Part shown: piece by piece, positions 6,698 through 62,339 of the stretch
Layout of the letters: each line of letters opens with the position of its first letter
How positions within the stretch are numbered: the first letter of the stretch is position 1
Source of the DNA: an uncultured Candidatus Bathyarchaeia archaeon
GTDB taxonomy: Archaea; Thermoproteota; Bathyarchaeia; 40CM-2-53-6; DTGE01
NCBI GenBank assembly: GCA_964489085.1
Contig: CAZAXO010000001.1
Location: forward strand, 1,483 to 65,482
Direction: 5' to 3'
DNA length: 64,000 bases
Program-made: the position numbers and the translations under genes
The notes under the pieces: generated by a model
Databases searched by the model: none
What the model saw: only the letters and a program-made list of their open reading frames with translations
Told to the model about the DNA's origin: nothing

Positions 6698-8248
6698 TTA
6701 TTTTTTAATGAAGTTACTAGCTTCTTTTTGAACTTTACTATATCTGTTATCTGACAACCATTCTCCAAATCTACCAATGGTACTTTCCATTATTTTATGG
6801 AATCTCTCATAAAATTCAAACTCGTGTTCATTAGAATTTTTGGATTCATCCGTGTGTGCATATTCGTGACACAAAAATCTATATATTTGAGCCATTGTAC
6901 TCTCGTAAATTTTGGCGTCCATAAAAAATTTCATGTTTATAGTAATATATGTACTACCGTCAGTCCATCCATTCAACTCTTTAGATGCTTTCATGAGTTT
7001 TAACTCTCTAACCGGTTGACCCTCAAAAACGTAATCATTCAAAAATTTTGCAGCATAAAACAATGTTCGCTTAACCTGAGATTTCAAATGTTTAAAAAGT
7101 TCATTTATATCAACCATTTTCTCACCCTTATCAGTCAAAACCTCAGCAGGCAACTCTTCCCGCATTGAGATTCTAAAAACTTCGTAACCTTCAGTACCAG
7201 CGATACGATTGATTGCTCGCTCAAACCTCTTATCTACGACTAAATATCCACGTCGTAAAGCCCTATCAGCGAGTTTAGAACCACCTTTAGCAAAATATAT
7301 ATCATCATAGGATTTAAGCACATTTATGCTAACCCTTTTTCCATTTGCCAAAAGAATAAGTTCTTTATCCTTTATAGTATCAAGCGAAATATCACCAGCC
7401 ATAAATTTGTCAACTATAATTTTAGCCAAATCTGGTCCGAACTTATTTCGTTTTTTGATATGACGTTCTTCTATTTCTTGAATAAATCTAATAAATCTCT
7501 TTTTTCTGTTCGATTCAACAAAATCGTTCCTAGCAAAATTGGTCTCTATCTTTTTCTTTACATTATAACTGACATTAAAAATACTATGAGAATCTTTAAC
7601 GTAAATTCCCATAGCATATAAACTACCACCGTAGGTACCACCGTAGGACGAATCCTTTAACTTAAATGCTTCAAAAATTTCATTTTGTTCAATTATTTTA
7701 TAATCGGGTTCAATCAACTTTTTATTTATAAACACTTTAGATTTTACCATATAAAAAGTCCTTTCCAATTGTCTACATATACCAGAGACCCTATACGACT
7801 CCATCCCGTCGTATAATTCGACATAGGAATTAGTTCCATCCACCTTCTTATCTAACTTATCTAAGGTATACGATAGACCGTTCTTTCTCACATCAATCTC
7901 TATCTTGTTAAAAAGAGATTCTATTGTAATCCTACCATACTGCATCATCTGAAGAATCCCAATGCCAAAGAAACCTATTTTGGTTTCATCGTCCCTTTTA
8001 GTAGAATCACCAATAGTTTCGAATTCGTTACGTATAATCTCTTCGGTCATACCAGAGCCATCATCTATTACCGATATGTAATCTTTGGTAATAGTGATAT
8101 TAATATTAGCTGAATCGGCATCAATCGAATTTTGAACAACCTCAGAAATAGCCTTTCTAAGGTCTGTACCCTGATACTTCATCATCAGGGAAATTAATTC
8201 CTTTCCAGCCTTAAAGTCCCTTCTTTCCATTTTCTTGACAACCTCCAA
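6698..8248 (-). CDS. GHKL (Bergerat-fold) ATPase with C-terminal HExxH motif
   Basis: N-box EVVQNSIDA, G1 box IDDGSGM and G2 box GFFGIGIL near the N-terminus. C-terminal LCHEYAHTDE is a zincin-like HExxH. Confidence 0.5.
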   Translation of the reverse strand: MEVVKKMERRDFKAGKELISLMMKYQGTDLRKAISEVVQNSIDADSANINITITKDYISVIDDGSGMTEEIIRNEFETIGDSTKRDDETKIGFFGIGILQMMQYGRITIESLFNKIEIDVRKNGLSYTLDKLDKKVDGTNSYVELYDGMESYRVSGICRQLERTFYMVKSKVFINKKLIEPDYKIIEQNEIFEAFKLKDSSYGGTYGGSLYAMGIYVKDSHSIFNVSYNVKKKIETNFARNDFVESNRKKRFIRFIQEIEERHIKKRNKFGPDLAKIIVDKFMAGDISLDTIKDKELILLANGKRVSINVLKSYDDIYFAKGGSKLADRALRRGYLVVDKRFERAINRIAGTEGYEVFRISMREELPAEVLTDKGEKMVDINELFKHLKSQVKRTLFYAAKFLNDYVFEGQPVRELKLMKASKELNGWTDGSTYITINMKFFMDAKIYESTMAQIYRFLCHEYAHTDESKNSNEHEFEFYERFHKIMESTIGRFGEWLSDNRYSKVQKEASNFIKK

Positions 8249-9665: not shown

Positions 9666-10043
9666 TTAAACCTCTTTTAATATTTGTCTTAAATTCATAA
9701 TAACATATTTACATGCGTAAAGACATCCGTAATAATATATATCTTTCCACTTGTTCTTACTCTTTCTTACTTTTTTTGTATAACTTTTAAATCTATTAAA
9801 TAGATCATCGATAAAAATATCGAGTGGTTTTTTATCGGTCTCATTGGTAAATCTGCGTAATGTATATATTATACCATCCTTCATTTCTTTTGGTACTTCT
9901 ACAAACTTATCGAAAATGAGTTGATATTTGCTACTATCGTAAAACATAATTTCGTTAGTTATCTTGGTATTAATAGTTTCTTTTAGTTTCTTTTTTATTT
10001 CTTTTAAGGCTTCTATGAGTTTCATGTTGTCACCTTTGTACAT
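9666..10043 (-). CDS. hypothetical protein
   Basis: 125-aa ORF. Confidence 0.35.
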   Translation of the reverse strand: MYKGDNMKLIEALKEIKKKLKETINTKITNEIMFYDSSKYQLIFDKFVEVPKEMKDGIIYTLRRFTNETDKKPLDIFIDDLFNRFKSYTKKVRKSKNKWKDIYYYGCLYACKYVIMNLRQILKEV

Positions 10044-10942
10044 TCTCCTATAGCATATGATGTATATTGACTTAATTCCTGTCGTTGTTCTCGAGTTAAC
10101 ATACTCATATATCCTTCATCCCATAAAAATATTTGTACGTTTCTATACCTAGACTTATATCTTAGAATAATTTCTTCTCTGAGTCTTGTCTCAGCGAATT
10201 CATCACCGTTTCTAGCCAGTTCTTTTAACAAAGGAAAGCTTAATTTTGAATCCAAGACTCTTGTGTCGTAACCGTTTTCTACCCATGCTTGTACGTTGGA
10301 ACAGTGTCCCATAAATTCTTCGTCTGGAGTCAACATGGTTGTGTCGGACTCATTCCTGTTCGAGTATAAATCTACGATTTCATCGATGCTTTCGAAGTCG
10401 TCGTTCGAATGGTTGCAGGGGATGCTAATCAATAGATATGAACATTGCATAAATTGATTATTATTTATATAAATTCGTGTACGATTATCATGTTTGACTA
10501 ATTTTAAAAGGGAAGAACGAGGATTTGGATAAAATACTTTGTGAACTAGCCCTTTAGCTCCTATAAGACTAGCTCCAAATAGATCAGTCTTGTCGAAATG
10601 TGTATTATTTAGATTAGACCCTTCAAGATTAGCATCTCTTAGGTTGGTTCTGGTGAGATTAGCCCATTCAAGATTAGCTCCTTGTAAGTTGGCTCCCTCA
10701 AGATTAGCTTCTTGTAAGTTGGACCTCCCTAGGTCTGCTCCTTCAAGACAAGCCCCTCTGAGATCAGATATATTTAAACTAGCCCACCTCAAATTGGCAT
10801 TTTTAAAGTTAATATCCTTTAGATCAGCATTTGTAAGGATAATTTTCGAATAATCTACTCCCTCAAAGTTTGCCCCTCGTAGGTTAGCACCTTTAGTTGG
10901 TATTTTAGTAATACTACCAGTATCAGTATCATAAAACTCCAT
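10022..10942 (-). CDS. pentapeptide-repeat protein
   Basis: About 25 consecutive A(D/N)LxG pentapeptide repeats (ANLRGANFEGVDYS...ANLEGANLQGANLEWANLTRTNLRDANLEGSNL), followed by a unique C-terminal domain of about 150 aa. Confidence 0.7.
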   Translation of the reverse strand: MEFYDTDTGSITKIPTKGANLRGANFEGVDYSKIILTNADLKDINFKNANLRWASLNISDLRGACLEGADLGRSNLQEANLEGANLQGANLEWANLTRTNLRDANLEGSNLNNTHFDKTDLFGASLIGAKGLVHKVFYPNPRSSLLKLVKHDNRTRIYINNNQFMQCSYLLISIPCNHSNDDFESIDEIVDLYSNRNESDTTMLTPDEEFMGHCSNVQAWVENGYDTRVLDSKLSFPLLKELARNGDEFAETRLREEIILRYKSRYRNVQIFLWDEGYMSMLTREQRQELSQYTSYAIGECTKVTT

Positions 10943-18958: not shown

Positions 18959-19843
18959 CTATACCAGCGACATTACCTTTCGGTTAGACTCCAATATTTC
19001 CATAATCTTCCCTATTTCATCTATATATTTCAAAATACATCTCTGTTTAGCCTCAGTCATAGTTAAACCAGACTCTCGTATCCAAATACTATCCAAATTA
19101 TCGTCAAATGTACGACCCTTCTTCATTGGTATTCCCCATGACCAAGTATCAACAGAAGTAAATTCAAATCCGTATTTGAGTAAACTCTTCATAAAAGTTA
19201 AATTTCCACCAAATATATGTATCTTTGGATTATTAAACCTCCTGTTTAAATAATTACAAACCTGACGCCGTATTTCTATAAAAAAATCGTACATATCACC
19301 ATCCATGTTGGTAATACCACCACCTCCGATACCCCAATACTCCACCTGTTTTAAATCGAAGTTCTCACCTAACATATCTACAAATAGTAATTTTTCATCG
19401 ACACTATTCCCTTGTATGGGAATAATTAACTCGTAATTCCTATCCATATCGAATTGTTCTATGTAGTTATCTATAGTCTTTCTCATATATGGTAATCTAT
19501 CTTCGTACCTATCCCCTATTTTTTCAATTAAAGATGCTGTATTGTAATCCAAACAAACACCTGAATCTGGATTAATAAAGTTTAAACAATCATTATATTC
19601 AGAAACAGTAAACGGATAATCTGGATAATTCTTTAAAATATTATAACCACCTGAATCAATCATAAGTTTTTTAACGTTCCTAAAAACGTCGGGAAATGTA
19701 TTTACAAAACAACGATTTTTGTTATCATAGGATTTCAAAACACTCTGTAACACACAAAGTTTAGTATAATCAACCCATATATTCCCAGTTCTACGAGTAA
19801 AAAGAAAAGAATTTTCAACTACAAAATAAAAATCTTCAAACAT
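18959..19843 (-). CDS. dpdA: DpdA-like tRNA-guanine-transglycosylase-family protein (7-deazaguanine DNA transglycosylase candidate)
   Basis: MIDSGGY matches the TGT catalytic DSGG(F/Y) motif. At 294 aa it is too short for ArcTGT with PUA domains. It neighbours the preQ0 biosynthesis genes. Confidence 0.5.
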   Translation of the reverse strand: MFEDFYFVVENSFLFTRRTGNIWVDYTKLCVLQSVLKSYDNKNRCFVNTFPDVFRNVKKLMIDSGGYNILKNYPDYPFTVSEYNDCLNFINPDSGVCLDYNTASLIEKIGDRYEDRLPYMRKTIDNYIEQFDMDRNYELIIPIQGNSVDEKLLFVDMLGENFDLKQVEYWGIGGGGITNMDGDMYDFFIEIRRQVCNYLNRRFNNPKIHIFGGNLTFMKSLLKYGFEFTSVDTWSWGIPMKKGRTFDDNLDSIWIRESGLTMTEAKQRCILKYIDEIGKIMEILESNRKVMSLV

Positions 19844-20168
19844 TTATTTCTATTCCTCCTCAAAATCGTGGCAAACCCTAAATAACCACATATCCATTTT
19901 ACACTCGTCGCAATAACCCATATTATTTGGGTTTAATGGATAATTTGTCCAATGAGCGCATCTTCCACATATCTTCCTTGAGTTAATCATTTTCTTCCCT
20001 CAAATCATTTACCATTTCCTTCAATTCTTTAGGATGAAACTTATAGTAAAAATCAGCCCAGTCTCTCACCATACAAGAAGTATGATCCATCATACAACCA
20101 GAAACCACATTAGTAATAGCTTCTCGTTCTTCTTCGGTAAATTCTTGTTTTGACATCTTTACCTCTTC

Positions 20169-21002
20169 TTATACATTTTCCTTTAATTTATGCTTATGTA
20201 GTCTAACAAATACCCTTATATCTGGATTAACCTTTCTCAAATATACTCTTCTGGCTTTCAATAATTCAAGATTAGATATTAAATTAACCCAAAATCTTTT
20301 AGTAAAAATAATAAATATCTTTCTCCATATCCCCTTATATTGTTTCATCAATTCATAATAATACCAATACGGATTTTTATCCCATTTAGGCTCCCAATAC
20401 CACTTAACCCATAAACCATTGTTTATCTCAGCTACCCACCGCCTTAAACAACTTATACACCATCCACACGATCTATGCTTATTATCGTAGCAAGACACCG
20501 TAAAATTTTCTAAATCCTCTACATCTCCACCTTTCTTAATATACTTTTTCAATAATTTAGTCTTTGTATACCTTCTAACTGGAAATTCAATTTTTACCTT
20601 CCTTTTAGTTTGTAATCCAAGAACATCGTCCCAACAATAAGAAATTATATTCTGAGCCATTTTCCTAAATTTATTAGTCTTATCCTTACTAGTTTCACCC
20701 CTGAGAGCACACAAATAAACTATATCCCCGTAAAAACTAGCTATTTCAATAAAGAATAAATTTCGTAAAGGTATATGAGCATTATCCAACTCAAATCCAA
20801 GTATACTACTTGCATCTACAATGATGAGCCTACCTCCGAATCCCCCAAGTTCATCAAACGCATTAATAATTTTTAACTCTTTTTCTTCGTATCTGGAACC
20901 TGTCTTAATGTATAGTAATATATCTGGTTCAAATAGGAAATTACATATAAAACTATCCATTCCACCTGAATACAGTAAGACGGTCTTTTTCTCACTTGAC
21001 AT
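20169..21002 (-). CDS. queC: 7-cyano-7-deazaguanine synthase QueC
   Basis: PP-loop VLLYSGGMDS, YIKTGSRYEEKE, and a C-terminal CGWCISC zinc site. Confidence 0.7.
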   Translation of the reverse strand: MSSEKKTVLLYSGGMDSFICNFLFEPDILLYIKTGSRYEEKELKIINAFDELGGFGGRLIIVDASSILGFELDNAHIPLRNLFFIEIASFYGDIVYLCALRGETSKDKTNKFRKMAQNIISYCWDDVLGLQTKRKVKIEFPVRRYTKTKLLKKYIKKGGDVEDLENFTVSCYDNKHRSCGWCISCLRRWVAEINNGLWVKWYWEPKWDKNPYWYYYELMKQYKGIWRKIFIIFTKRFWVNLISNLELLKARRVYLRKVNPDIRVFVRLHKHKLKENV

Positions 21003-21312
21003 TAATCATTTCCTCCCTAAAATGTATAATTAATTCACTAATGGCATGTTTATAAATCATACTACAATCCGTCGAAGTTTCTATTACGTATAAGTCATCA
21101 TCTAACCAATACATTTTTTTTATGTTATGAAAAAACTTAGGTTTAGGATATATACAATAATGTAACTCAACAAAATCTATTTTTTCTACATCTTCATCAG
21201 AGGTAAAAACAAAGAAACTAGATATATGATCACTCTCTTCTGCTTTCTTAAATAATCCCATTTTACATATATCCTTCAAAAAATCTATTATATTTTTTAC
21301 TGTGAGTCGCAT
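20992..21312 (-). CDS. hypothetical protein
   Basis: 106-aa ORF between queC and the membrane-protein gene. Confidence 0.3.
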   Translation of the reverse strand: MRLTVKNIIDFLKDICKMGLFKKAEESDHISSFFVFTSDEDVEKIDFVELHYCIYPKPKFFHNIKKMYWLDDDLYVIETSTDCSMIYKHAISELIIHFREEMINVK

Positions 21313-21649
21313 GGTCTAAAAATATATGTACATATATTATAAGTAGTATTCTAAGGATAATATCTACAATAATTAATTCATTTATAAAAACAATTACAAA
21401 TAGTAAAATAATAAAGGTAATAGTTGCTAAGAATCTATAACTATGTAAATATAAATGTAACTTACCTTTAAAGCCTAATAATTTATCTTGCGTATTTTTT
21501 TGCCATAAATCACTAACTATATATATGAGCATAATATCAGGCAAAAATGATATAATAACACCAATAAACCCAAAAATAATAAAAGATATAACTACAGTCA
21601 ATATAGTATTAATTATATCTAGCATTATTTTTATTCTTCTATTATTCAC
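21263..21649 (-). CDS. small polytopic membrane protein
   Basis: 128 aa with 3-4 predicted TM helices. Overlaps the GT gene start by 4 nt. Confidence 0.4.
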   Translation of the reverse strand: MNNRRIKIMLDIINTILTVVISFIIFGFIGVIISFLPDIMLIYIVSDLWQKNTQDKLLGFKGKLHLYLHSYRFLATITFIILLFVIVFINELIIVDIILRILLIIYVHIFLDHATHSKKYNRFFEGYM

Positions 21650-22620
21650 AGGACAACCCTATATTTAGATAATTTTTGAATATATTTAAATTCATTTATA
21701 TCTATTATCTTACCATCAAACAATCCAAACAATTTTATTAATCCTAACTTTATCCCGTACATAAATGCCCGAATCTTTAATTTAAAAGGCTGTCCCTTCA
21801 ACTTTATATTATTTATTATAGATAGTAACATACCAATAGGATCTAATCTTCTAAATAAATATATTATTATCTCATTTCTAAACATTAAATAATGTCTGAA
21901 CTTATCAAATTTAGTAATGAGCAACTCTACATTATGTTCAGCAATAGTACTAGGTTGAAATATACAATAAACATCCTTTCTAAATGCTGTATTACTAATA
22001 TCTTCATGGTAAACAAAAAACTCAGTATCAAACCAAAGTTCCTTCTCCTTAAACATCCAAACATCCAATAATACACAAGTAGTTATCATATGACCAATAC
22101 TTATTGATTCTGAAGGTATATCATCAATTTCACCTTTACGTATCGTATTATTAAAATGTTTATTATATTTACCGTAAAACCAAATTCTATTAGTACCACC
22201 GTACAACATTTTTGGACATACAGCATATGTTCTATATTTCTTAATAATATTAAGTAACATTGATATAGTATCTTTCCTAATATAGGAATCAGAATCACAT
22301 ATTAGCAAATACCTAGACACACATTCCCTTATTATTCTATTCTTACCGTAGGAAGCACCAAGATTGGAACCCGAATAAATAATATGAAAGTTTAGTTTTA
22401 TGTATTCAAATAATAGATTATATAACCTATTAATATCAATAGAACTATAACTATCATTAACTAACAGAATTACCTCCCCTATATAATTCCTTTCATATCT
22501 TAACGAATTAAGTAATAAACGTAAACCATTAAATTCATTATTAAACACAATACCTACAGTTATCCTATTCTCATTATACCAATATAAATCGAGGCCGGAT
22601 TTAGTAATGTTTATTTTCAT
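21646..22620 (-). CDS. family-2-like (GT-A fold) glycosyltransferase
   Basis: N-terminal VGIVFNNEF...LLLNSL, LLVNDSYSS, and a DxD-like CDSDS. Length 324 aa. Confidence 0.5.
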   Translation of the reverse strand: MKINITKSGLDLYWYNENRITVGIVFNNEFNGLRLLLNSLRYERNYIGEVILLVNDSYSSIDINRLYNLLFEYIKLNFHIIYSGSNLGASYGKNRIIRECVSRYLLICDSDSYIRKDTISMLLNIIKKYRTYAVCPKMLYGGTNRIWFYGKYNKHFNNTIRKGEIDDIPSESISIGHMITTCVLLDVWMFKEKELWFDTEFFVYHEDISNTAFRKDVYCIFQPSTIAEHNVELLITKFDKFRHYLMFRNEIIIYLFRRLDPIGMLLSIINNIKLKGQPFKLKIRAFMYGIKLGLIKLFGLFDGKIIDINEFKYIQKLSKYRVVL

Positions 22621-22635
22621 TTTAATCCCCTTTTT

Positions 22636-23952
22636 CTAAATGATATTTCTAAAATAGTCGGAACATCTCTGTATACAACGTATAGCATTTCTAATTATGA
22701 CTCCATTAACATTAAATTCACGAGATGAGAGTTCAAACTCAATTTTATTAAAATTCTTCAACTTTTCTTCATTACAACAATATTTCTCATTAATCCATAA
22801 TAAGTATTTTTTTTCATTTTCAGTGGCATCACAAAAACACAATCCACAGGTAGTACATTTCATAAGACCACATTTTTTACAGAAAGTTTTAATAGAAGAT
22901 GCTATAGTTATTGGGCTTCCACAGAACCAACAAATATGATCTTCAGATTCTTTTATTTCTCTGTTTCTTGCCCTAACACACTGTTTTAATCCAGTATCAT
23001 AAAAATTGACGTTTTTACCTCCCTTATGCATAACTTCTAACCTCGTTAATTTTTCTAAATCGTAATAGCAAGAAAGGTAACATCCATTACATTCCTCAAT
23101 TCTTTCTTTAAAAATCTTAACGTACCATTCAAATCCATACTTCTCTATACTACGGTTTAAATCGAATATATTAAAATCAAATGGCACCATATCCTCACAG
23201 GGCATAATCATGAGGTCGTTATTTACTACTAATCTATAAGGATAACTACAATGCCAACTCATATCCATAAATTTTGGTATATTTCTAATATATTCTTTTG
23301 TATTATGAATCAGAAGTTTATCATAATTATATAAAACATTCTTAACATCATCTATTATTCTATATTTCAGACGCGAATCGTTAATAGAAATAGTAGAATC
23401 GTAGTTTCCCATCAGACAATGTTTTCTATCGTCTGTACTATAATTATATACAGCAACTATAGTCCACACTTTTAGGCTGGTAAAATATCTGATAGTATCA
23501 AATAATTTTCCAATAGTCTTTTCTTCGTATAATAGATTTATGGAAACATCATCAAAATATTTTCTATATATATCAAACTTATCCTTAAAACCTTTGTAGG
23601 AATCTACACTTATAGTTATATTCTTAAGACCAGATTCACTCAACCTCATAGCAATAGATTCACTTAACTTACTACCATTAGTAACTATAGTGAAATCCAT
23701 TCCCAATGTATCACTGAGATATCCTATGACATCGTATATATGTTCATATTCCAATGGTTCACCCCCCATGATAACAATAAATTCAGACAAATTACTCATT
23801 ATTTCCAACGCATTTATAATATCTATAAAATTAGCATCCTTAGTCTTAAGAGATTTGGAAGAACAAAAAGGACAGTCATAACTACAATTTCTATTTGATA
23901 TAAACAAACAAGATTTAAACATCTTCTCTTTCATTCTAATTTTTTCTACCAT
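22636..23952 (-). CDS. radical SAM enzyme with C-terminal Cys-rich SPASM/twitch-like domain
   Basis: CSYDCPFC (Cx3Cx2C) at residues 23-30, a VIMGGEPLEY glycine-rich motif, and C-terminal CNGCYLSC...CWFCGSP...CKKCGLMKCTTCGLCFC. Confidence 0.6.
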   Translation of the reverse strand: MVEKIRMKEKMFKSCLFISNRNCSYDCPFCSSKSLKTKDANFIDIINALEIMSNLSEFIVIMGGEPLEYEHIYDVIGYLSDTLGMDFTIVTNGSKLSESIAMRLSESGLKNITISVDSYKGFKDKFDIYRKYFDDVSINLLYEEKTIGKLFDTIRYFTSLKVWTIVAVYNYSTDDRKHCLMGNYDSTISINDSRLKYRIIDDVKNVLYNYDKLLIHNTKEYIRNIPKFMDMSWHCSYPYRLVVNNDLMIMPCEDMVPFDFNIFDLNRSIEKYGFEWYVKIFKERIEECNGCYLSCYYDLEKLTRLEVMHKGGKNVNFYDTGLKQCVRARNREIKESEDHICWFCGSPITIASSIKTFCKKCGLMKCTTCGLCFCDATENEKKYLLWINEKYCCNEEKLKNFNKIEFELSSREFNVNGVIIRNAIRCIQRCSDYFRNII

Positions 23953-24066
23953 TTAAATCAACTCTGGTCCTTCGATATATGTTTTCATTTTACCATTAGG
24001 TACAAAAATACGACACGAATCACCGTGACTGTGAAATTCAATAGTATCCCATTCAATCTCATCCAT
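23953..24066 (-). CDS. 37-aa ORF translationally coupled to the radical SAM gene (candidate precursor peptide or small protein)
   Basis: MDEIEWDTIEFHSHGDSCRIFVPNGKMKTYIEGPELI. Its TAA stop directly abuts the ATG of the radical SAM gene. It is below the ORF-track size cutoff. Confidence 0.2.
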   Translation of the reverse strand: MDEIEWDTIEFHSHGDSCRIFVPNGKMKTYIEGPELI

Positions 24067-24226
24067 TTTTTAACGATCTACCAACTTAGGTTTCTTAATT
24101 TTATCCATTAGTTCATCGACTTCATCTGGAGATAATATAACCTGACTACCTTCTATTATTATCCTATAAAAATCTTTAAACGAACCACTCGTTAGCTTCT
24201 CAACATCAATCGGTATTTTTACCATA

Positions 24227-24535
24227 TTATCTCCTCGTTAATTCTTTATATTTCTCCATTGCTGTGTTAAAATCCAATCGATATAAGATTTTAAGCGTTC
24301 TAAGAAAGAAATAATTCAAACGACTGCTAGCTAATTCAAAATTCGTCTTTTCGGTAAACGACATTTTCAGTTCCAAAAACATTCTAGTCATTTCATCGAA
24401 AAATTGTTCGATTACGGCATCTCGTTCCTTTGGTGTTCTTTCGTTAAAATCCTCCATTAATTTTGAATCGTTAATGTAAATCGTTTTAACAGGAGTTTGA
24501 AACTTTTCAAACATTTTATCTAATTCTTCACCCAC
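24227..24535 (-). CDS. hypothetical protein
   Basis: 102-aa ORF. Confidence 0.3.
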   Translation of the reverse strand: MGEELDKMFEKFQTPVKTIYINDSKLMEDFNERTPKERDAVIEQFFDEMTRMFLELKMSFTEKTNFELASSRLNYFFLRTLKILYRLDFNTAMEKYKELTRR

Positions 24536-24660
24536 GATTTTTTATCCCTCTGACTTCTCAATAAATATTAACCAACGTGAATTTTTCCAATTCTTCATTT
24601 ATTCGCATTTTCTTTTTTACAATATAATAATACTCTAAAGAAATTTATATAATCAGACAA

Positions 24661-25230
24661 TCACCTATCGATTAAACTCAATATTTCACTCCTTAATTTG
24701 AGGTTATTAAGAGCATCTCCTTTAACGGAGGATGTAACCATTTTAACGTTTTCCTTCTTAACACCACGCATAACTTCACACAAATGAAGTGCTTCAATTA
24801 CAACCATAACCGACGCCGGTTTCAAATCTGACTCATAAATAAATTTACATATATCATTGGTCATTTTTTCTTGTATATTTAATCTATGAGCAAATTTGTC
24901 TACGATTCTAGATAGTTTCGATATACCAATTATATTACCTTCATTTGACAAATATGCTACATCGACCCTACCATAAAAAGGTAACATATGGTGTTCACAT
25001 ATGGAATAAAATTTTATATTTTTTGATATTACTAACTCAGAAGCTATATCTTCGTGTTTAAATACTTTTATTAGAGAATTATCGTCGTTATTATTATATC
25101 CATTGAAAATCTCTTCATACATTCTTGCTACTCTATTTGGAGTTTCCTTTATTCCCTCTCGTAACTCATCTGTACCTTCTATCTCTAAAAGTAAAGTTTT
25201 AATACATCTTCTAATTTTATCCAGATTCAT
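24661..25230 (-). CDS. folE: GTP cyclohydrolase I
   Basis: SICEHHMLPF, GISKLSRIVD, QEKMT and ALHLCEVMRGV motifs. Confidence 0.85.
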   Translation of the reverse strand: MNLDKIRRCIKTLLLEIEGTDELREGIKETPNRVARMYEEIFNGYNNNDDNSLIKVFKHEDIASELVISKNIKFYSICEHHMLPFYGRVDVAYLSNEGNIIGISKLSRIVDKFAHRLNIQEKMTNDICKFIYESDLKPASVMVVIEALHLCEVMRGVKKENVKMVTSSVKGDALNNLKLRSEILSLIDR

Positions 25231-26054
25231 TCCATACCAATAAATTTGTGTAGTTGAGGTGTAATACCCATAAAATTAAACTCTTTACTATATAAATCCT
25301 TATTTACGTCACTTGCGATTTTTGCTATAGTTTTTAAATACGTTCTCATATACCGTTTAGATTTTCCATCATACATCTTTACATACTTATCATTCGTTTT
25401 TTCGGTATTAATAGGTGATAAATAAAATGGAAATTCATATAAATAATTTTTTCTGATAAAGCTAAGTATTAGTTCAATATCTCTACTTACATGTTCGGGA
25501 TCAATCATGTATTTAAAGTTGACTTCTATATTTTCGTAACCATGGTGTAATAGTTCTTCCAATAAATGTATTGGTATCCTATAATTTGATTTCTGAGTTA
25601 TTGTATATATTAAATATCTACCGGATATAGTTTGTTTATACGGACTACCAATTTCGGTAAGTAAGGATAACGTACCGTTGGTTTCTATCTTGATATTAAA
25701 ATGCTTATTATTTTTTACGTGAGTATATACATATTGAGTTAATCTGACTATTTCATCCTTAAATAAAAGTGGTTCACCACCAGTAAATACTAAATGTCTA
25801 AAATGATACTTATTACACATATCATATAAATATTTTTGAAACGTTATACCTATTTTATCTAGTAAAAGACTATCTCTAGTAAAATCGGTGTCACAGTACG
25901 AACATTTCAAATTACATTTATTAAACCTTATAAATAAGCTTGGCATCCCAATATATTTCCCCTCTCCCTGTATGGAGAAGAATATGTCACTTACCTTATC
26001 TCTAATATCCTCTACATTAATCCAAGACATGTAATCACCCAAACACATTCCCAA
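25227..26054 (-). CDS. queE: 7-carboxy-7-deazaguanine synthase QueE (radical SAM)
   Basis: FSIQGEGKYIGMPSLFIRFNKCNLKCSYCDT and FTGGEPLL. 4-nt overlap with folE. Confidence 0.8.
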   Translation of the reverse strand: MGMCLGDYMSWINVEDIRDKVSDIFFSIQGEGKYIGMPSLFIRFNKCNLKCSYCDTDFTRDSLLLDKIGITFQKYLYDMCNKYHFRHLVFTGGEPLLFKDEIVRLTQYVYTHVKNNKHFNIKIETNGTLSLLTEIGSPYKQTISGRYLIYTITQKSNYRIPIHLLEELLHHGYENIEVNFKYMIDPEHVSRDIELILSFIRKNYLYEFPFYLSPINTEKTNDKYVKMYDGKSKRYMRTYLKTIAKIASDVNKDLYSKEFNFMGITPQLHKFIGME

Positions 26055-26493
26055 ATATTTTTTCTAATATACCATCCCTACGTAATTCAAAATTGAACCA
26101 ATCATAAGCCTCCTTTATTTCAACCTCCACACTAGACGTATCAGATTCGTATAATTTAACTGAAGTAAAAACCTGTAGATCTACAGGTCCGTTATATATC
26201 AAATCAAACATCATTTTATCAACAAGGATACATATAGCTGATGCGATATTTTCAGCAGTCGGATTAAACTTTATTACATTATTAAGGAATTTGTGATCAA
26301 ATCGATTTTCTATTTCTTTCTTAATTAAATTAAAATCTATAGCCATACCATTTTGCCAATAACAATTAATACCACCCTTAAGTTCAATAGTCACATGTCC
26401 ATACCAGGTGTGACCATGTAAATTTTTACATTTGCCTTTGTAATCTACTAATTTGTGCGCCGCACTAAATTTAAAATGTTTACATATTATCAT
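26035..26493 (-). CDS. queD: 6-carboxy-5,6,7,8-tetrahydropterin synthase QueD
   Basis: FKFSAAHKL...CKNLHGHTWYGHV (Cx5HGH) signature. Confidence 0.8.
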   Translation of the reverse strand: MIICKHFKFSAAHKLVDYKGKCKNLHGHTWYGHVTIELKGGINCYWQNGMAIDFNLIKKEIENRFDHKFLNNVIKFNPTAENIASAICILVDKMMFDLIYNGPVDLQVFTSVKLYESDTSSVEVEIKEAYDWFNFELRRDGILEKIFGNVFG

Positions 26494-26856: not shown

Positions 26857-27225
26857 TTATGAATAAGATTCAGCAAACGCTTTAAATTTCTTGGTATCAG
26901 TATTTACCCTTTTAACCCCATATTTATGTTTATACGCAGCAATTATGGACTCCATACTAGTACTTTTACTTCGTCTATAAGGTGCATGTCCTTTTTGGAA
27001 GCCACGAGGTTTCTTAATCGATTCGTGGTATTCTTTCCAGTATTTCCAATATTCGAAGGTTCCGGTAATTTCTCCACGCCATACTGCCTTTTGTCCGGTT
27101 TCTTTCTCCATTCGTTTCATTTCTTCGGTTAAGGGTTTATCCCATTTCATACCCTTCCAGTATGCGACTTCTTGGGTCTTACCTTTCCAAGTGTGTTTCC
27201 TAGTTTCTCTTTTCTTTCTTGGCAT
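26857..27225 (-). CDS. basic protein of the WRGxxTGTF paralog family
   Basis: Contains VWRGEITGTFEYWKYW. Paralogous to 27425..27910 and 50371..50859. Confidence 0.4.
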   Translation of the reverse strand: MPRKKRETRKHTWKGKTQEVAYWKGMKWDKPLTEEMKRMEKETGQKAVWRGEITGTFEYWKYWKEYHESIKKPRGFQKGHAPYRRSKSTSMESIIAAYKHKYGVKRVNTDTKKFKAFAESYS

Positions 27226-27424: not shown

Positions 27425-27910
27425 TTATTTCGCTTCCTTAGAAGCTTTTTCCTTCTCCATTTGATACAGGATAAAAGTTCCGGTAATCACTCCACGCCAA
27501 ACCGGAAACTTTCCGGGTTTAGCTTCCATAAATTCGTTGAATTCAGCTAACAGAGCTTTGGTGATTTTGTGTTCCTTACCATTTTTATCCATAACCTTGC
27601 TCCCCAATGCAGGAAGCTTTTTTGGATCAGTTTTTAATTTGGGAGCACCTCGTTTCTTAGGTGCCTTTTTGGTTGTTGCCTTTTTCTTTTTAGAGGTTTT
27701 AGGAGTAGGTTCTTCCTCATCTTCGTCCTCTTCCTCATCTTCGTCCTCAAATTCTTCTTCCATTTCGGCTGCTTCCTCTAATGCTTCTTCTAATTCGTCC
27801 TCTTCGTCCTCATCAAGTTCAATATCTTCAAGATCGTCAACAACCTCAATTTCCTCTTCTACTTCTTGTTTCTTTTTTTGGGTCTTTTTTGGCATATTCA
27901 TTACTTCCAT
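27425..27910 (-). CDS. acidic/basic chromatin-like protein of the WRGxxTGTF paralog family
   Basis: Long poly-Glu/Asp tract followed by a Lys-rich tract (KKKKATTKKAPKKRGAPK) and C-terminal PVWRGVITGTF. Confidence 0.4.
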   Translation of the reverse strand: MEVMNMPKKTQKKKQEVEEEIEVVDDLEDIELDEDEEDELEEALEEAAEMEEEFEDEDEEEDEDEEEPTPKTSKKKKATTKKAPKKRGAPKLKTDPKKLPALGSKVMDKNGKEHKITKALLAEFNEFMEAKPGKFPVWRGVITGTFILYQMEKEKASKEAK

Positions 27911-45686: not shown

Positions 45687-46499
45687 TTGATTTATGTAGT
45701 TAATTACGACATGGATGAAGAAGATATAAGCAAAATCTCGGATTTTAAGTATAATAATATATTTATAAACTGTCTAGACCATAGTACAAAGGGTATAGAA
45801 AATGTACTCATTAATACATTTGCTGAGCCAAACAGAAATTTCTTTTCAGGTAAAATATGTAGGTATATAATTAGAAACGTATATTTTGCTAATAATAAGT
45901 CTATAGATATAGTTTTCCGAAATGTTGGTAGGATTATATATCTTATTAATATTAGTTATGAACAGGAGAAGTACATATATTCTAAACACAAAAATAAATA
46001 TAGGTATTATAAGTGTTCATTTAAAAGGAGGGATGATTCGTTTACACTTATGGTTAAACGGGTTATGTTTTGGAATGATATGAACAAATTGAGTTTATTG
46101 GAAGGACAAAGTTATGATATAGGTTATTTATTGAAATTAATTAGTTATAACCTACCGGAGTCTGTGTTATCTGAAACGGACTTTCTTAATAATCTTGAGC
46201 TTATAATGGATTTAGGTAAGTATGTTAATATGATAAATAAAGAGAATATATTTGTATCTTTACTATTGAATTTTGTTACACCTTCTTATATAACTAAATT
46301 TAGATATCCTCCTAAACATAGAAAAGGAAAAAAGAAGAAGGAGGAATCTGAGTTAAAAACTAAATATGGTGGCAATATAGAGGATATGGCTCGTGATAAA
46401 ATGATTGAATATTTTAAATATAGAGACTCTGATTTTGGAAATATTAATACATCGAAAAAAGCCAAAAAAAATAACGATAATACAATGAGTTTGATATAA
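45687..46499 (+). CDS. hypothetical protein
   Basis: 270-aa ORF, the first gene of the plus-strand block. Confidence 0.4.
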   Translation: MIYVVNYDMDEEDISKISDFKYNNIFINCLDHSTKGIENVLINTFAEPNRNFFSGKICRYIIRNVYFANNKSIDIVFRNVGRIIYLINISYEQEKYIYSKHKNKYRYYKCSFKRRDDSFTLMVKRVMFWNDMNKLSLLEGQSYDIGYLLKLISYNLPESVLSETDFLNNLELIMDLGKYVNMINKENIFVSLLLNFVTPSYITKFRYPPKHRKGKKKKEESELKTKYGGNIEDMARDKMIEYFKYRDSDFGNINTSKKAKKNNDNTMSLI

Positions 46500-47099
46500 A
46501 TGAATTTTGAGGATATAACTGATATTAAATTTAAGAAGATAGATAAGGATACTATAGAGTTTACTAAAAAGACCTCATTATGGTGTACCTTACCATATGA
46601 TAACCATAGTAAAGGGTGTCCTAACTACGGTAAAAAAAATACATGTCCACCAGATGCTCCGTATTTGGAACATGAAGTAAAGTCATACGAACATATATAT
46701 TTACTTTATTTACGCTTTGATTTTGAGATGTATAGAGTAATAAGGGGCAATGAATGGATTAATAAGGGATTTCCTTATACAGAAAAGCAATTGCGTTGTC
46801 TTTTATATTATCAACCCTCAATAAAGAGGATAATTAAAAATCATATAATTAATAAATTATTTACTCTGGGAAGTATTTATGTTCTTGGATGTGGTTCTGG
46901 GTTGAGGCTTCCTTTTCAAAAGATTGTGTATTCTATGGAAGCTGTTGGTATAAATGTATTTAAAACGTTAAAAAATAATAATATTTATCATGAAATCAAA
47001 CCTGTTAATACTACATTGTTTGTTAATTTAATATGTTCGAGTGATATTGTATTTGAGAGGAAAGAGAAGAAAGAGATAAAAATAATGGAGTTGATATGA
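46500..47099 (+). CDS. hypothetical protein (CPNYGKKNTCPP motif)
   Basis: 199-aa ORF immediately adjacent to its neighbours. Confidence 0.35.
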   Translation: MNFEDITDIKFKKIDKDTIEFTKKTSLWCTLPYDNHSKGCPNYGKKNTCPPDAPYLEHEVKSYEHIYLLYLRFDFEMYRVIRGNEWINKGFPYTEKQLRCLLYYQPSIKRIIKNHIINKLFTLGSIYVLGCGSGLRLPFQKIVYSMEAVGINVFKTLKNNNIYHEIKPVNTTLFVNLICSSDIVFERKEKKEIKIMELI

Positions 47100-48059
47100 T
47101 TGGATGAAGTTAACGTTTTGTTAATGGAAAAATATAGGAGTAGTGATTTTTCTGATGGTGCGTTATTGGGTCAAGATAGGATATTGAGGTCGTGTAGAAA
47201 TTTTGTTAAGAAGGGTGAAATACCACATCTTATATTATCTGGACCTGCCGGTACCGGAAAAACAACTACTGCTTTGGCTTTGGCTTTACGTATTAGTGGA
47301 CCTGCTAATACTAAAATACTTAATGCGAGTGATGAAAATAGTATTAAGGTTATACGAGGACCAGTTAAAGAATTTATTATGGCTGATTCTGATTTGTCGG
47401 ATATATTAAAGACTCTGATATTGGATGAAAGTGATAATATGTCATCTAAGGCTCAACAGGGACTTCGTAGAATGATAGAAGAACATAGTGATTCTTTTAG
47501 GCTTATTATGACGTGTAATTATATAAACCAGATTATAGATCCCATTGTATCTAGGTGTGTAAATTTGGTATATAGACCTATTCCTAAGATTTTAGTTGTT
47601 AACAGATTAAAAAAGGTTGCTAAAGCTGAATCTATTAAAATTACTAAGAAACAACTTAATATAGTTGCTACTGTGTTTAGGGGTGATATGCGTAAGTGTT
47701 ATAATATTTTAGATTCTATTCGTCTTGGTGCTGATTTTGGTGCATTAATAAATGAAATAAGTCCCGTTACTTATTTTAAGTTAATATTATCTAACAATAT
47801 AGTCGGTATTAAGGATTATATTGATAAAAATATATTTAGTAAGTATGATATGAAATATTTGATTGATTTGTGTATAGATTTGATTGTTAGATTAATTAAA
47901 TCTGATAAAGTTAACGATAAAAGTAAATTTAGTTTGTCTAATGCTAAACATTTGGTTGGTCTTTTGACCGAGGCAGATTATAGGTTGTCTATTGGTTCTG
48001 AATATTCTGCTGTAGCCTTCTGGATAGCTGTAAAGTATAATAATTTGGTGTTATTATAA
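47100..48059 (+). CDS. rfc: replication factor C small-subunit-like clamp loader (AAA+)
   Basis: Walker A LSGPAGTGKTTTALALA, Walker B ILDESDNM, and the RFC-specific SRC motif (IDPIVSRC). Confidence 0.75.
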   Translation: MDEVNVLLMEKYRSSDFSDGALLGQDRILRSCRNFVKKGEIPHLILSGPAGTGKTTTALALALRISGPANTKILNASDENSIKVIRGPVKEFIMADSDLSDILKTLILDESDNMSSKAQQGLRRMIEEHSDSFRLIMTCNYINQIIDPIVSRCVNLVYRPIPKILVVNRLKKVAKAESIKITKKQLNIVATVFRGDMRKCYNILDSIRLGADFGALINEISPVTYFKLILSNNIVGIKDYIDKNIFSKYDMKYLIDLCIDLIVRLIKSDKVNDKSKFSLSNAKHLVGLLTEADYRLSIGSEYSAVAFWIAVKYNNLVLL

Positions 48060-48341
48060 GTGATTACATTTCTAGTTAAGGAAGCTCGTAGTCATTTGGA
48101 GGAATACGGTATTGTATACACTTTACGAGAGTTTTCAAATCGTCGTGTTGGTAAATGTAAATATAATTATTTTCCAAATGATAGGAGTAGAGGGTCTGTA
48201 TTTATTGTTTTTATTGGGAATTTTTTTGATAAGGAATGTGAATTAGTACCATACGTTAAAGATTCCGGTTTTAATTCTTTGAATGAGTGGTTAGAGAAGG
48301 CAGGTAAAGCCAGAATGTTATACTCGGTAAGTTTATTATAG
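48060..48341 (+). CDS. hypothetical protein
   Basis: 93-aa ORF. Confidence 0.3.
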   Translation: MITFLVKEARSHLEEYGIVYTLREFSNRRVGKCKYNYFPNDRSRGSVFIVFIGNFFDKECELVPYVKDSGFNSLNEWLEKAGKARMLYSVSLL

Positions 48342-50216
48342 GTGATCGTTATAGATCTTTGGCAGAAGTTATTACCCATTAGAGAGAAAGCCTACAGTTC
48401 AGATAAAAAAATCATATTGGATAATTACATACAGGGATCTGGTAAATCTCTATCTCAAACCGGTATAATGATAAAGAACAATAAAAATAACTTAGCCTTT
48501 TTTAATGACCACGAACTAATTCACGAAATGTGGAGTTCAATTTACAGTACCAGAGGTATTGGAGGTTGGATTAAGAACTACCCTTTTATCAACCTTATGT
48601 TTGGTAAGACTTACGTACTTAAGGAATACGAACGTAAAACCTACGGCAAGAAATTTAGTTGTTTCTGCAATCAGTACGGTAACGATTTAATCTTTAATTT
48701 GATAAGGATGGGATTTATACCTAGTAATTATTGTAATGATATATGTGTGTATGGTAACGAGTGTTCACATAAAGCTCAGATACGAGAGAACTTCAACATG
48801 GCTAAACTGGATTTTGATAGTCTATGGTTGTTGGTTAAATCCTATATATTTACAGATATAATGGATGGTATATTTGATAAGTTTAAAGATTTGAATATAT
48901 TGATGGATGAAAACTTCTTTAACGTTTTGTTTGACCAGATAGATTTGAGGGCATTTACTATATCATTTTATAAGAAGGCTATTTCAGATGTGTTAAATAT
49001 AAATTCTGAACTTGAGGAAATATGGGTAGATTTTGTACCACTACTTGATAGGATGATAAATAGTTTGGTTGGTGCTAAAAGCATAAAGACAGAAAAGAAG
49101 ATCAAGTTAATAATTAGAGATATATACGAATTTTTAGGTTCTTATTCTGTTTCAGATTTATCGGGTTGGAACGAAATTATGAAGCACACCTTTCTCCAAA
49201 ACAATGGTACTATAACTCCTAAGATAGGAAATATTATGAATAGTTTTATAGATATACTAAATGATATTTCATTATGTGAAACACCTGAGTCTGTCAATAA
49301 TAGAATTTTAGTCGATGACGAAGAACATATATTTACATACATAATAAATAAAAAAAAATTAACTGAAGATCTAATTGAAAAATCCTCCAAATTTATAATT
49401 GCATCATCTATAATGGATGGTAAAATATTCGAAGCATTATTTCCAAATTATTCTGACGATTATACCATACTGCATGGTGGAATACAACCTAAATTTAAAA
49501 AAGTGTATAGATATACGAAGGGTGTGTATCCAAAATATGTATTATATAATTATAAAACGAATCAATATACTAAATCGTTCTGCAATCTACTTAAAATTAC
49601 TGGTGAAATATTACAGAGACATAAAAATGATAAATTGATGTTAGTGAGCTTTAAGGAGTTTATAAGAGTTATCCATAAAGGGTTAAAATCCGTTATACGT
49701 AAATATGGTATAGATTTAGTATATGCATATTGGTACAATATAGAAGGTAAAAACATTTATAAAGATAGAACGGTACAAATACAATTTGGATGTCCAGGAA
49801 GACCAAGTAGATATTCTACTGCGATTTCTACTATTTTAGATTTAGATAAAGACCTGATCGATTATATATCGGTACAAGGTGCACAATTTCAAACATCCGA
49901 GAGACTTAGAAGTATCTTATATCCAAATGTTAAAACAGTTTACCAATTATCGAAGATAATAAATGACAAATATCCTGAATATATAGATTTTAATAATATT
50001 GCTGAGATAAAGCATAAGGGTCTTATTTCCTTTATGAGGAAATACGGGGTTTGTAGTGCTGATGAAATAAGGGTAAAATATTATGAAAGTAGGATTTCTA
50101 AAAAGCAGGTTACCAATGTACTCGATAACTTATTTAGAGAAGAGTTATTAGGTAAGGTTAAGATTAAAAGGGAAGTAGGACCAGGAAGACCAACTTGGTA
50201 TTGGAAGGCTAATTAA
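48342..50216 (+). CDS. large P-loop NTPase (Walker A QGSGKS) of unknown role; packaging ATPase or replication ATPase are candidates
   Basis: 624 aa with YIQGSGKSLSQTG near the N-terminus and Cys clusters (FSCFCNQYG, CNDICVYGNEC). Confidence 0.35.
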   Translation: MIVIDLWQKLLPIREKAYSSDKKIILDNYIQGSGKSLSQTGIMIKNNKNNLAFFNDHELIHEMWSSIYSTRGIGGWIKNYPFINLMFGKTYVLKEYERKTYGKKFSCFCNQYGNDLIFNLIRMGFIPSNYCNDICVYGNECSHKAQIRENFNMAKLDFDSLWLLVKSYIFTDIMDGIFDKFKDLNILMDENFFNVLFDQIDLRAFTISFYKKAISDVLNINSELEEIWVDFVPLLDRMINSLVGAKSIKTEKKIKLIIRDIYEFLGSYSVSDLSGWNEIMKHTFLQNNGTITPKIGNIMNSFIDILNDISLCETPESVNNRILVDDEEHIFTYIINKKKLTEDLIEKSSKFIIASSIMDGKIFEALFPNYSDDYTILHGGIQPKFKKVYRYTKGVYPKYVLYNYKTNQYTKSFCNLLKITGEILQRHKNDKLMLVSFKEFIRVIHKGLKSVIRKYGIDLVYAYWYNIEGKNIYKDRTVQIQFGCPGRPSRYSTAISTILDLDKDLIDYISVQGAQFQTSERLRSILYPNVKTVYQLSKIINDKYPEYIDFNNIAEIKHKGLISFMRKYGVCSADEIRVKYYESRISKKQVTNVLDNLFREELLGKVKIKREVGPGRPTWYWKAN

Positions 50217-50370: not shown

Positions 50371-50859
50371 TTAGACATATGTAATTTGTTCTATTTTCTT
50401 TATTTTCTTTTTATTATATGGAACGTTGTTATCATCGAAGATTTTTATTATTTCGTGTTTATATATTTGTTCCCAGTTACTGTTTACTCCCTTATAATTT
50501 ATTTTTCTTACATATGTGAGTATTTGTTTTAATGCTGGTGTCCTAGGTATTTGGTTTCTATATTTTTTTGTTATATTTAGTAGTTCTTCGATAGTATATT
50601 CTACGTATATTCTCTTTATTACTTTTCGTTCCTTTACTTTCGATAATTCTACCTTTGTTCTTCTTGTCCTTTTTTTCTCTCCAGCCCAGTATAACCAGTA
50701 ACAAAACGTTCCGGTGACTCTTCCTCGTATTACCGCGTCTTTTCCAGTTTCCTCTTTATATCTTATCATATCCGGTGCTAAGATATCAGTCCACGGTTGA
50801 TCTTTCCAAAATTTTACTTCTTTAGTTACTCCTTTATAAGTTATAGTTCTAGTTTCCAT
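50371..50859 (-). CDS. protein of the WRGxxTGTF paralog family
   Basis: Contains VIRGRVTGTFCYWLYW. Third paralog. Confidence 0.4.
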   Translation of the reverse strand: METRTITYKGVTKEVKFWKDQPWTDILAPDMIRYKEETGKDAVIRGRVTGTFCYWLYWAGEKKRTRRTKVELSKVKERKVIKRIYVEYTIEELLNITKKYRNQIPRTPALKQILTYVRKINYKGVNSNWEQIYKHEIIKIFDDNNVPYNKKKIKKIEQITYV

Positions 50860-59858: not shown

Positions 59859-60140
59859 TTACCTTTTATAGATTCTCCATTTACCTGTGAAATATAGGTG
59901 ATCTTCTATTTTTTCTTCTTGTACTATCGATGTCAGTCCGACCGGAGATAATATTTGAAATGTAGAAGGATATAACGCGTATATAAAGACAACTCGTTTA
60001 CTTTTTCTCCATTTATCTTCTAGAAATTCAAGTAACTTCTTTTTATCCTTTAGTTTCTTGAAATCTTCGTTAGATAATGGACAACCGTGTCTATCTTCCA
60101 ATAATCCCTTTATTCTTTCATCTAAACTAGATAAACTCAT
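59859..60140 (-). CDS. small protein of the C-terminal (F/Y)TGDW family
   Basis: Ends in LYFTGKWRIYKR. Confidence 0.3.
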   Translation of the reverse strand: MSLSSLDERIKGLLEDRHGCPLSNEDFKKLKDKKKLLEFLEDKWRKSKRVVFIYALYPSTFQILSPVGLTSIVQEEKIEDHLYFTGKWRIYKR

Positions 60141-62035: not shown

Positions 62036-62075
62036 GTTTATATTTATATAAAAATAAAAAAATTTGGAGGTCAAA

Positions 62076-62336: not shown

Positions 62337-62339
62337 CTT

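Follow-up and report, generated by a model that had tools for sequence, protein, structure and literature searches.

To our knowledge, viral DNA has so far yielded eight derivatives of 7-deazaguanine, and each new derivative came with new tailoring enzymes, DpdA subfamilies and resistance profiles against restriction enzymes and Cas9. Systems of this kind are said to be well known already, in work attributed to Hutinet (2019) and Cui (2023); halovirus HVTV-1 reportedly has a 2'-deoxy-7-aminomethyl-7-deazaguanine (dPreQ1) system consisting of DpdA4, FolE, QueD, QueE and QueC together with QueF. Here we describe a gene array at positions 18959-26493 of a 64,000-nucleotide stretch of contig CAZAXO010000001.1 (the window), which belongs to an uncultured, archaeal-type element of marine sediments that we infer to be virus-like. 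Like this element, HVTV-1 is a virus of archaeal type with PolB and RFC replication genes, and its deazaguanine genes likewise form a co-directional array interspersed with small open reading frames (ORFs), which in HVTV-1 ends with FolE-DpdA. An earlier, sequence-only reading of the window had called the splitting of the pathway genes unusual; the same interspersion in HVTV-1 speaks otherwise.

We consider it likely that the array is a virus-encoded module for 7-deazaguanine modification of DNA, putative and self-protective in function. A viral 7-deazaguanine pathway combined with a DpdA-type transglycosylase is supported by transitive profile homology, by fold similarity to the DpdA crystal structure 7UI4, by conserved aspartates, by the absence of tRNA-binding domains and by the linkage of the QueC-like gene to the DpdA gene.

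The predicted transglycosylase and its 7-deazaguanine supply

The sequence-only reading had described a short, 294-aa protein of the tRNA-guanine transglycosylase (TGT) family with a DSGG motif. The motif was found (MIDSGGYN), and profile and fold evidence was needed to place the protein in a family. In PHROGs it gave only a weak match (phrog_1279, 2.8e-6); a phmmer search of the PDB returned only spurious DARPin matches, and a PDB profile search none. Eight close homologues were recovered, all from marine-sediment or other metagenomes. When their profile was run against 1.84 billion representative proteins, 110 matches were obtained, and those with E-values from 5e-17 to 1e-9 included proteins above the gathering score of the Pfam DpdA family PF23859. 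PF23859 matched 80 of the 85 profile matches that were tested, TGT also matched 32 of them, and DUF6610 none. The homology to DpdA is transitive, running through proteins that match PF23859, and the profile hidden Markov model (HMM) searches proposed in the sequence-only reading in this way supported a DpdA-type assignment and matched the pathway enzymes as well.

The structure model of the 294-aa protein is confident (predicted local distance difference test, pLDDT, 83) and comprises the barrel only. Its fold similarity was highest to 7UI4, and DpdA and TGTs scored above Cap10; the scores of the tRNA-TGTs were only slightly below that of DpdA, a caveat on the DpdA assignment. Against viral models, Foldseek retrieved DpdA/TGT-like proteins of Mycobacterium phage Bella96 (1.3e-10), Vibrio phage nt-1 (9e-10) and Cellulophaga phage phiST (4e-4).

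In the active site of the bacterial enzyme bDpdA, D95 acts as acid/base, D130 in base recognition and D256 as nucleophile, together with H181-G182 and G206-G207 (PMC10164549). The equivalents in the window protein are D63, D99, D232, Q144-G145 and G173-175, matched by motif order and spacing against the published residues rather than by residue-level superposition. D63, D99, Q144-G145, D232 and the glycine loop G173-G176 are invariant in the eight close homologues, and among 85 distant ones their conservation is 90% or higher. The protein has no PF01702 match, no PUA domain and no C-terminal tRNA-binding domain; it also has no CxCxxC...H zinc site, C45 and C269 being its only invariant cysteines. 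The sequence-only reading had named PUA or tRNA-binding regions as a sign of a tRNA-modifying enzyme, and their absence from this bare barrel favours DpdA.

DpdA4, which has been described as an archaeal-virus-specific subfamily, was rejected as the identity of the protein: PF20314 (DUF6610) matched neither the window protein nor its 85 relatives, and HVTV1_69 was not seen by HMMs of the window family (E ~0.06, 5 sequences). The 294-aa family is probably a so far unclassified branch of DpdA, as judged from its sequence relationships. A tblastn search with the window DpdA against 50,697 phage records gave a single weak match, to a Methanofastidiosa virus, and scans with the DpdA alignment found no related locus in IMG/VR viral contigs or GTDB genome contigs.

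The gene encoding this protein is the last of the array, all genes of which lie on the minus strand. The features, with coordinates from the ORF list and in order of transcription, are:

26035..26493, minus strand: QueD (6-carboxytetrahydropterin synthase), 152 aa; PF01242, CxxxHGH
25227..26054, minus strand: QueE (7-carboxy-7-deazaguanine synthase, radical SAM), 275 aa; phrog_2076, CNLKCSYC
24661..25230, minus strand: FolE (GTP cyclohydrolase I), 189 aa; PF01227, CEHHMLPF
24070..24535, minus strand: two small ORFs, 102 aa and 51 aa; no family match (Pfam, PHROG)
22636..23952, minus strand: second radical-SAM enzyme (rSAM2), 438 aa; PF04055
21646..22620, minus strand: family-2 glycosyltransferase (GT2), 324 aa, with DSD motif; PF00535, 4.5e-12
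21263..21649, minus strand: small membrane protein, 128 aa; two hydrophobic blocks in a hydropathy scan
20992..21312, minus strand: 106-aa ORF overlapping both neighbours; sub-threshold Hfq-like Pfam match only
20169..21002, minus strand: divergent QueC-like ATP-pyrophosphatase, 277 aa; PF06508 (partial), phrog_1550
19850..20156, minus strand: two tightly packed small ORFs, 57 aa and 46 aa, between the QueC-like gene and DpdA; no family match
18959..19843, minus strand: predicted DpdA-family DNA guanine transglycosylase, 294 aa, bare TIM barrel; D63 (DSGG), D99, Q144-G145, G173-G176 and D232 conserved

QueE shares 20 nt with QueD and 4 nt with FolE, and the start of the membrane-protein gene overlaps the GT2 stop by 4 nt. 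From rSAM2 through DpdA, neighbouring genes overlap or lie no more than 15 nt apart; between FolE, the first pair of small ORFs and rSAM2 the spacing is wider, at 125 and 117 nt. That pair has no counterpart in related loci, where a 47-48-aa zinc-ribbon ORF and a VanZ-like protein are found instead. Motifs and HMM matches placed FolE, QueD, QueE, the QueC-like protein and the 294-aa TGT-fold protein where the sequence-only reading had put them. Its statement that QueF, Gat-QueC and ArcS are missing also holds at the level of Pfam, with no match to these families among the 95 window ORFs scanned.

FolE, QueD and QueE convert GTP to 7-carboxy-7-deazaguanine (CDG) by an established pathway, and the set is complete in the window, with catalytic motifs in all three enzymes. 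FolE is an unambiguous family member (PF01227, 7.4e-61; NCBIfam FolE models at 216, 193 and 186 bits, above their cutoffs), in agreement with its motif CEHHMLPF, by which it had first been recognised. QueE, recognised from CNLKCSYCDT, carries this radical-SAM site uninterrupted (CNLKCSYCDTDF) and matches the QueE-like phrog_2076 over its full length (1.9e-33); its five top NCBIfam matches are QueE models, every one below its own cutoff. QueD matches PF01242 (1.1e-25) and falls just below the cutoff of TIGR03367 (2.6e-23; 82 bits, cutoff 89). Its identification by the HGH motif stood, and the spacing given as Cx5HGH did not: the sequence C-K-N-L-H-G-H is the canonical CxxxHGH. As the catalytic cysteine separates QueD from DpdL (PMC10516641) and is intact in this motif, DpdL was ruled out for the gene of 6-pyruvoyltetrahydropterin synthase fold at 26035-26493, which is of QueD type. 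The E-values exclude chance, so the matches of the pathway enzymes are not accidental.

The fourth pathway enzyme had been called QueC from its SGGMDS motif. The motif is there (YSGGMDS, residues 11-17), and the protein is a divergent paralogue rather than a canonical QueC. PF06508 (1e-13) aligned over residues 69-189 only, and phrog_1550 matched at 1e-18. When the protein was aligned with E. coli QueC, the HVTV-1 QueC and its own orthologues, it was found to retain SGGxDS, the (I)PxRN motif (IPLRN), K165 and the CY...CxxCxxC zinc site, which reads SCY...CGWCISC with a spacing of x7 versus the canonical x8. About 20 residues are deleted around L75, and an aromatic extension of about 70 aa is present at the C-terminus. 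A profile of the clade matched QueC best among PDB entries (2pg3, 8.6e-7; 3bl5, 6e-6), ahead of QatC (6e-3) and Cap9 (0.16), and PADLOC scored QueC at 1.8e-8 and QatC at 0.0034.

Several observations weigh against a viral DNA-modification module of this kind. The 294-aa protein matched no family in Pfam (E <= 0.01) or NCBIfam, PF23859 included. Neither Pfam nor PHROGs recognised a capsid, portal or terminase gene in the window, which bears on its status as a virus. The QueC-like protein has lost YxQxHxxE, with TGSRYEEKE in its place, and YPDC, replaced by S-KDK with a lone Asp; equivalents of Y35, Q37 and H39 are missing. Because two motif sets that contain residues essential in E. coli QueC are missing, 7-cyano-7-deazaguanine (preQ0) is not assured as the product.

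The loss of YxQxHxxE and YPDC is common to the orthologues and to the homologues of phages BS162P1 and NCTB, whereas in the HVTV-1 QueC, used as a control, Y and Q of YxQxHxxE are retained, with H replaced, and VPxRN and YPDC are present as well. In E. coli QueC, Y35A, R99A, Y131A and Y189A each abolish function, and loss of the signature has been argued to predict loss of preQ0 synthesis (PMC13329287). Thus, of the designation 'preQ0-type' the deazaguanine pathway could be kept, and preQ0 as its product is not secure. The product may be preQ0, 7-amido-7-deazaguanine (ADG) or another amide.

Members of the same divergent clade were found next to an unannotated DpdA-like gene in Bacteroides phage BS162P1 (L021:7998-9624) and near FolE in jumbo phage NCTB (L022:5309-8786); all deazaguanine genes of these two phages are annotated as 'hypothetical'. 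No Campylobacter phage was found for this protein at E <= 1e-3. By its sequence, the clade forms a viral QueC-like lineage of its own, accompanied in every case by deazaguanine genes. The DNA of BS162P1 and NCTB, which are cultured or complete phages, would offer an accessible test of the product of this clade, and the remodelled protein is itself a natural test of the residues that determine the product of QueC.

Relatives with and without the QueC-like gene

The related loci (designated by L numbers) were divided into lineage A (L002-L010, L015-L017, L020, L023 and L024; DpdA 55-68% identical to that of the window) and lineage B (L011-L014; 46-49%). The gene order of lineage A is QueD-QueE-FolE, small ORFs, rSAM2, a variable slot, the membrane protein, small ORFs, the QueC-like gene, small ORFs, DpdA, a helicase and an ERCC4 nuclease. 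In every lineage-A relative that covers the region, the QueC-like gene lies at most 1 kb upstream of DpdA, with no more than two small ORFs between them. In the window, in L015/L016, in L017 and in L024, rSAM2 comes immediately after the FolE operon. Orthologues of about 50% identity occupy the same position in L015, L016, L017, L020, L023 and L024, and homologues of the membrane protein (174-200 aa) lie between rSAM2 and QueC in L002, L003, L015, L016, L017 and L023, with a truncated copy in L006. The sequence-only reading had spoken of inserted genes that split the pathway; rSAM2 and the membrane protein are a conserved part of the lineage-A array and no accidental insertions. L020 and L006 were obtained from one sample, but their sequences do not overlap exactly anywhere. 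L024, a relative from Loki's Castle sediment, has a TnpB/OrfB_IS605 (Cas12f-like) gene immediately upstream of QueD (L024:73-1296).

The slot after rSAM2 contains GT2 in the window and L020 and a MazG-like gene in L015 (L015:8740-9039); L023 has GT2 there together with an N6/N4 DNA methyltransferase and a membrane acyltransferase of the Acyl_transf_3 type (L023:1784-3586). GT2 is therefore neither unique to the window genome, as L020 and L023 also have it next after rSAM2, nor an obligatory member of the pathway, as it is absent from L015, L016 and L017.

Lineage B is arranged as methyltransferase, QueD, QueE, FolE, a 126-aa ORF and DpdA (e.g. L013:6425-10885), and no QueC-like gene, rSAM2 or membrane protein was found within the 8-10 kb available on either side. 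The more distant L019 has QueD, QueE, FolE and DpdA interspersed within about 5 kb. In the DpdA beta6-alpha6 loop, lineage A has YWGIGGGG versus YWGIGGITITG in lineage B; in TGTs this glycine loop contacts the 7-substituent (PMC10164549). The difference would fit different substrates, and the base inserted in lineage B may be CDG or one of its derivatives, or lineage B may rely on a host QueC. Sister lineages with and without the QueC-like protein and rSAM2, and with differing DpdA loops, provide a ready-made comparison of substrate specificity.

The QueE of lineage B has 671 aa (L013:7043-9058, L012:1903-3918) and includes an intein-like insert of about 420 aa. The insert lies just before the third Cys of CxxxCxxC (CNLLCDY|CIGYM...IVHN|CDTKF), which would make this Cys the +1 extein nucleophile.

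The proposed inserted base and possible roles of rSAM2

In the proposed mechanism, FolE, QueD and QueE would supply CDG from GTP, and the QueC-like enzyme would convert it in an ATP-dependent step to the base that is used, whether preQ0, the amide ADG or another amide-type derivative. The DpdA-family enzyme would then exchange guanines in the double-stranded DNA of the element for this base after replication, as in HVTV-1, where the guanine exchange also follows replication. By analogy with bDpdA and the TGTs, the exchange may proceed by double displacement, with Asp232 covalently bound to the DNA in the intermediate and Asp63 serving as general acid/base. Modification would make the DNA resistant to restriction enzymes of the host and to further defences that target DNA. 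The base may be tailored further by rSAM2, the membrane protein and, where present, GT2, or these may be co-transcribed, unrelated cargo, the latter being at least as likely. The data show what the genes encode, the fold, the conservation of the catalytic positions and that of the linkage; we infer DNA rather than tRNA as substrate, and likewise the identity of the base and the anti-restriction role.

rSAM2 matches PF04055 (6e-13), carries CxxxCxxC at residues 23-30 and a GGEPL motif, and probably starts at 23934. Its C-terminal region is Cys-rich and zinc-ribbon-like; the invariant cysteines C235, C252 and C288-x2-C291-x3-C295 suggest an auxiliary Fe-S cluster, and Pfam gave no SPASM match in the protein. 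The top named models, viperin, NirJ, AhbD and MoaA, all scored far under the NCBIfam cutoffs. Viperin/pVip was rejected, since the matches were confined to the N-terminal core (NF038283 with 53.6 bits against a cutoff of 180; PADLOC pVip 3e-16), and NrdG-activase and MoaA identities were dismissed as core-only matches with scores far below the family cutoffs. A role in making ribosomally synthesized and post-translationally modified peptides was not supported, as the preceding small ORFs, one of which would be the precursor, differ between the window and its relatives. No rSAM2 homologue was found among the 50,697 phage records. The membrane protein has a conserved H...D..THS motif and no match in Pfam, NCBIfam or PHROGs, and GT2 has no sequence match in the PDB.

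The first alternative for the base, to which we give nearly an even chance, is plain 2'-deoxy-7-cyano-7-deazaguanine (dPreQ0): the QueC-like enzyme would still make preQ0 and DpdA insert it, while rSAM2, GT2 and the membrane protein would form an independent module in the variable slot, for example one for glycan modification. This is consistent with the changing content of the interval between rSAM2 and the membrane protein (GT2; MazG-like; GT2 with methyltransferase and Acyl_transf_3). Phage gtr/oac serotype-conversion genes modify membrane or surface glycans, and GT2, the small membrane protein and, in L023, the acyltransferase resemble such phage glycan sets. Moreover, members of the QueC-like clade lie beside DpdA-like, FolE or QueE genes in BS162P1 and NCTB without any rSAM2 homologue, and synteny among the relatives extends over the whole genome, which makes conservation of position weak support for functional coupling. 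However, rSAM2 directly follows QueD-QueE-FolE in four independent relatives, the stretch from rSAM2 to DpdA is tightly packed, its genes overlapping or at most 15 nt apart, and rSAM2, the membrane protein and the QueC-like gene are present or absent together across two lineages. The active site of the QueC-like protein is also unlike that of canonical preQ0 synthases. If the base is plain dPreQ0, the array is one more case of a well-described anti-restriction strategy.

Less probable, and on the whole unlikely, is a hypermodified base, a derivative outside the eight described that would be built by the QueC-like enzyme together with rSAM2 and, in some genomes, GT2, either as the free base ahead of insertion or afterwards on the DNA, the glycine loop of DpdA being adapted to its 7-substituent. 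The QueC-like protein has lost the substrate-pocket motifs yet kept its ATP and zinc sites, which argues for such a product, and so do the retention of rSAM2, with its Cys-rich C-terminus, inside the array and the DpdA loop, GGGG where the QueC-like protein and rSAM2 occur and GGIT where they do not. A second radical-SAM enzyme or a glycosyltransferase in a DpdA cluster was not found in the searchable literature. The similarity of rSAM2 to known radical-SAM enzymes is, however, limited to the generic core (profile matches in the PDB to a BlsE-type decarboxylase, 1e-7, MoaA, 5e-7, and BtrN, 2e-6), and its structure model (pLDDT 54) is too poor for a structure search. Probably no more than one or two evolutionary events lie behind the co-occurrence, and GT2 is optional among the relatives. 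The probability left by these two alternatives goes to known bases such as dADG (2'-deoxy-7-amido-7-deazaguanine).

It is improbable that the genes are auxiliary metabolic genes which boost preQ0 so that the TGT-fold protein can modify host tRNA with archaeosine or queuosine. The near-equal fold scores of the tRNA-TGTs have to be set against a protein of only 294 aa with no PUA, C-terminal tRNA-binding domain or zinc site, against profile neighbours that are overwhelmingly Pfam DpdA, and against the finding that every virus known to have 7-deazaguanine in its DNA encodes a DpdA-family protein (PMC10516641). Finally, deazaguanylation of a protein by the QueC-like and TGT-like pair, as with Cap9/Cap10 of type IV cyclic-oligonucleotide-based antiphage signalling systems (CBASS) or with QatC, is very improbable, because DpdA and TGTs exceed Cap10 in fold score, the clade profile prefers QueC to QatC and Cap9, PADLOC has no match for the DpdA-like protein, no CD-NTase or QatABD was found among the scanned ORFs, and the full FolE/QueD/QueE supply is typical of viral DNA-modification clusters.

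Genomic context and comparison with known systems

The window has about 30% G+C and encodes PolB, an RFC-like clamp loader, a FEN1/XPG nuclease, a Hel308-like helicase, an ERCC4 nuclease, a family-4 uracil-DNA glycosylase and a PD-(D/E)XK nuclease. Since the element has archaeal-type replication genes, self-protective modification of its DNA is plausible. The nearest relatives of PolB in the phage and archaeal-virus collection belong to haloarchaeal tailed viruses (23-25% identity); no nucleotide-level relative of the window was found in that collection, and ARAGORN detected no tRNA genes in the window.

Further genes of the window encode PKD-domain and sialidase-like CBM-domain proteins (197-1965), a GHKL-type ATPase (6698-8248; HATPase_c_3, 1.9e-14), a 306-aa pentapeptide-repeat protein (10022-10942; PF00805, 4e-37) that may be a DNA-mimic anti-defence protein or interact with topoisomerase, and a restriction-endonuclease-like protein of the Mrr_cat family (60137-61129). 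Three small paralogues (26857-27225, 27425-27910 and 50371-50859) share the motif W(R/K)G.(I/V)TGTF.YW and have homologues in L015 and L017; one of the three has a long acidic Glu/Asp tract. Plus-strand gene blocks occur only at 45687-50216, which carries the gene of the RFC-like clamp loader along with that of a DUF2284 metal-binding protein, and at 62000-64000. Both coincide with sign changes of the GC skew and may mark replication or transcription-unit boundaries.

Que genes have been listed in cold-seep viromes in the literature. Compared with HVTV-1, whose transglycosylase is the 386-aa DpdA4 (DUF6610), and which has QueF and a QueC with VPxRN and YPDC, the window lacks QueF, its QueC-like protein is remodelled, and it has a second radical-SAM enzyme. 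Phages with DpdA1 or DpdA2 (Escherichia phages CAjan and 9g, Vibrio phage nt-1) resemble the window in combining FolE-QueD-QueE-QueC(-like) with a short stand-alone DpdA, and the closest viral structural neighbours of the window DpdA are of this kind (Bella96, nt-1), at no more than 17% identity. Unlike the window, these phage systems have no rSAM2, membrane-protein or GT2 extras; the window, for its part, has archaeal-type replication genes. The bacterial Dpd system of Salmonella Montevideo (bDpdA/DpdB/DpdC; 7UI4) belongs to a restriction-modification island, and its bDpdA, with 413 aa and the large Ins8 insertion, needs the DpdB ATPase, whereas the window has a minimal barrel and neither DpdB nor DpdC-K.

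Among phages with DpdA3, Cellulophaga phage phiST with DpdL makes dDG (2'-deoxy-7-deazaguanine) and Campylobacter phage CP220 with QueC* makes dADG (PMC10516641); for QueC* of Campylobacter phages, ADG has been proposed as the product. These phages are a precedent for pathways that end at CDG or branch off there and for QueC homologues whose product is altered, and lineage B is likewise without QueC. The DpdA3 of phiST differs in being a weak structural match to the window protein (4e-4), and the window has QueD, not DpdL. In the literature, the ArcS-RaSEA archaeosine pathway contains the only described second radical-SAM enzyme that acts on 7-deazaguanine after QueE; it differs in having tRNA as substrate, and no ArcS/DUF5591 match was found in the window.

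Relative to these systems, the window adds a minimal DpdA branch that is missed by current family models and is not DpdA4, so screens based on Pfam or PHROGs will under-count such systems in archaeal viruses. Also new are the remodelled QueC-like protein and the sister lineages, with their differences in pathway content and DpdA loop. A further new aspect is the conserved second radical-SAM gene inside the array, of which we found no description in the searchable literature and which makes rSAM2 a candidate new tailoring enzyme.

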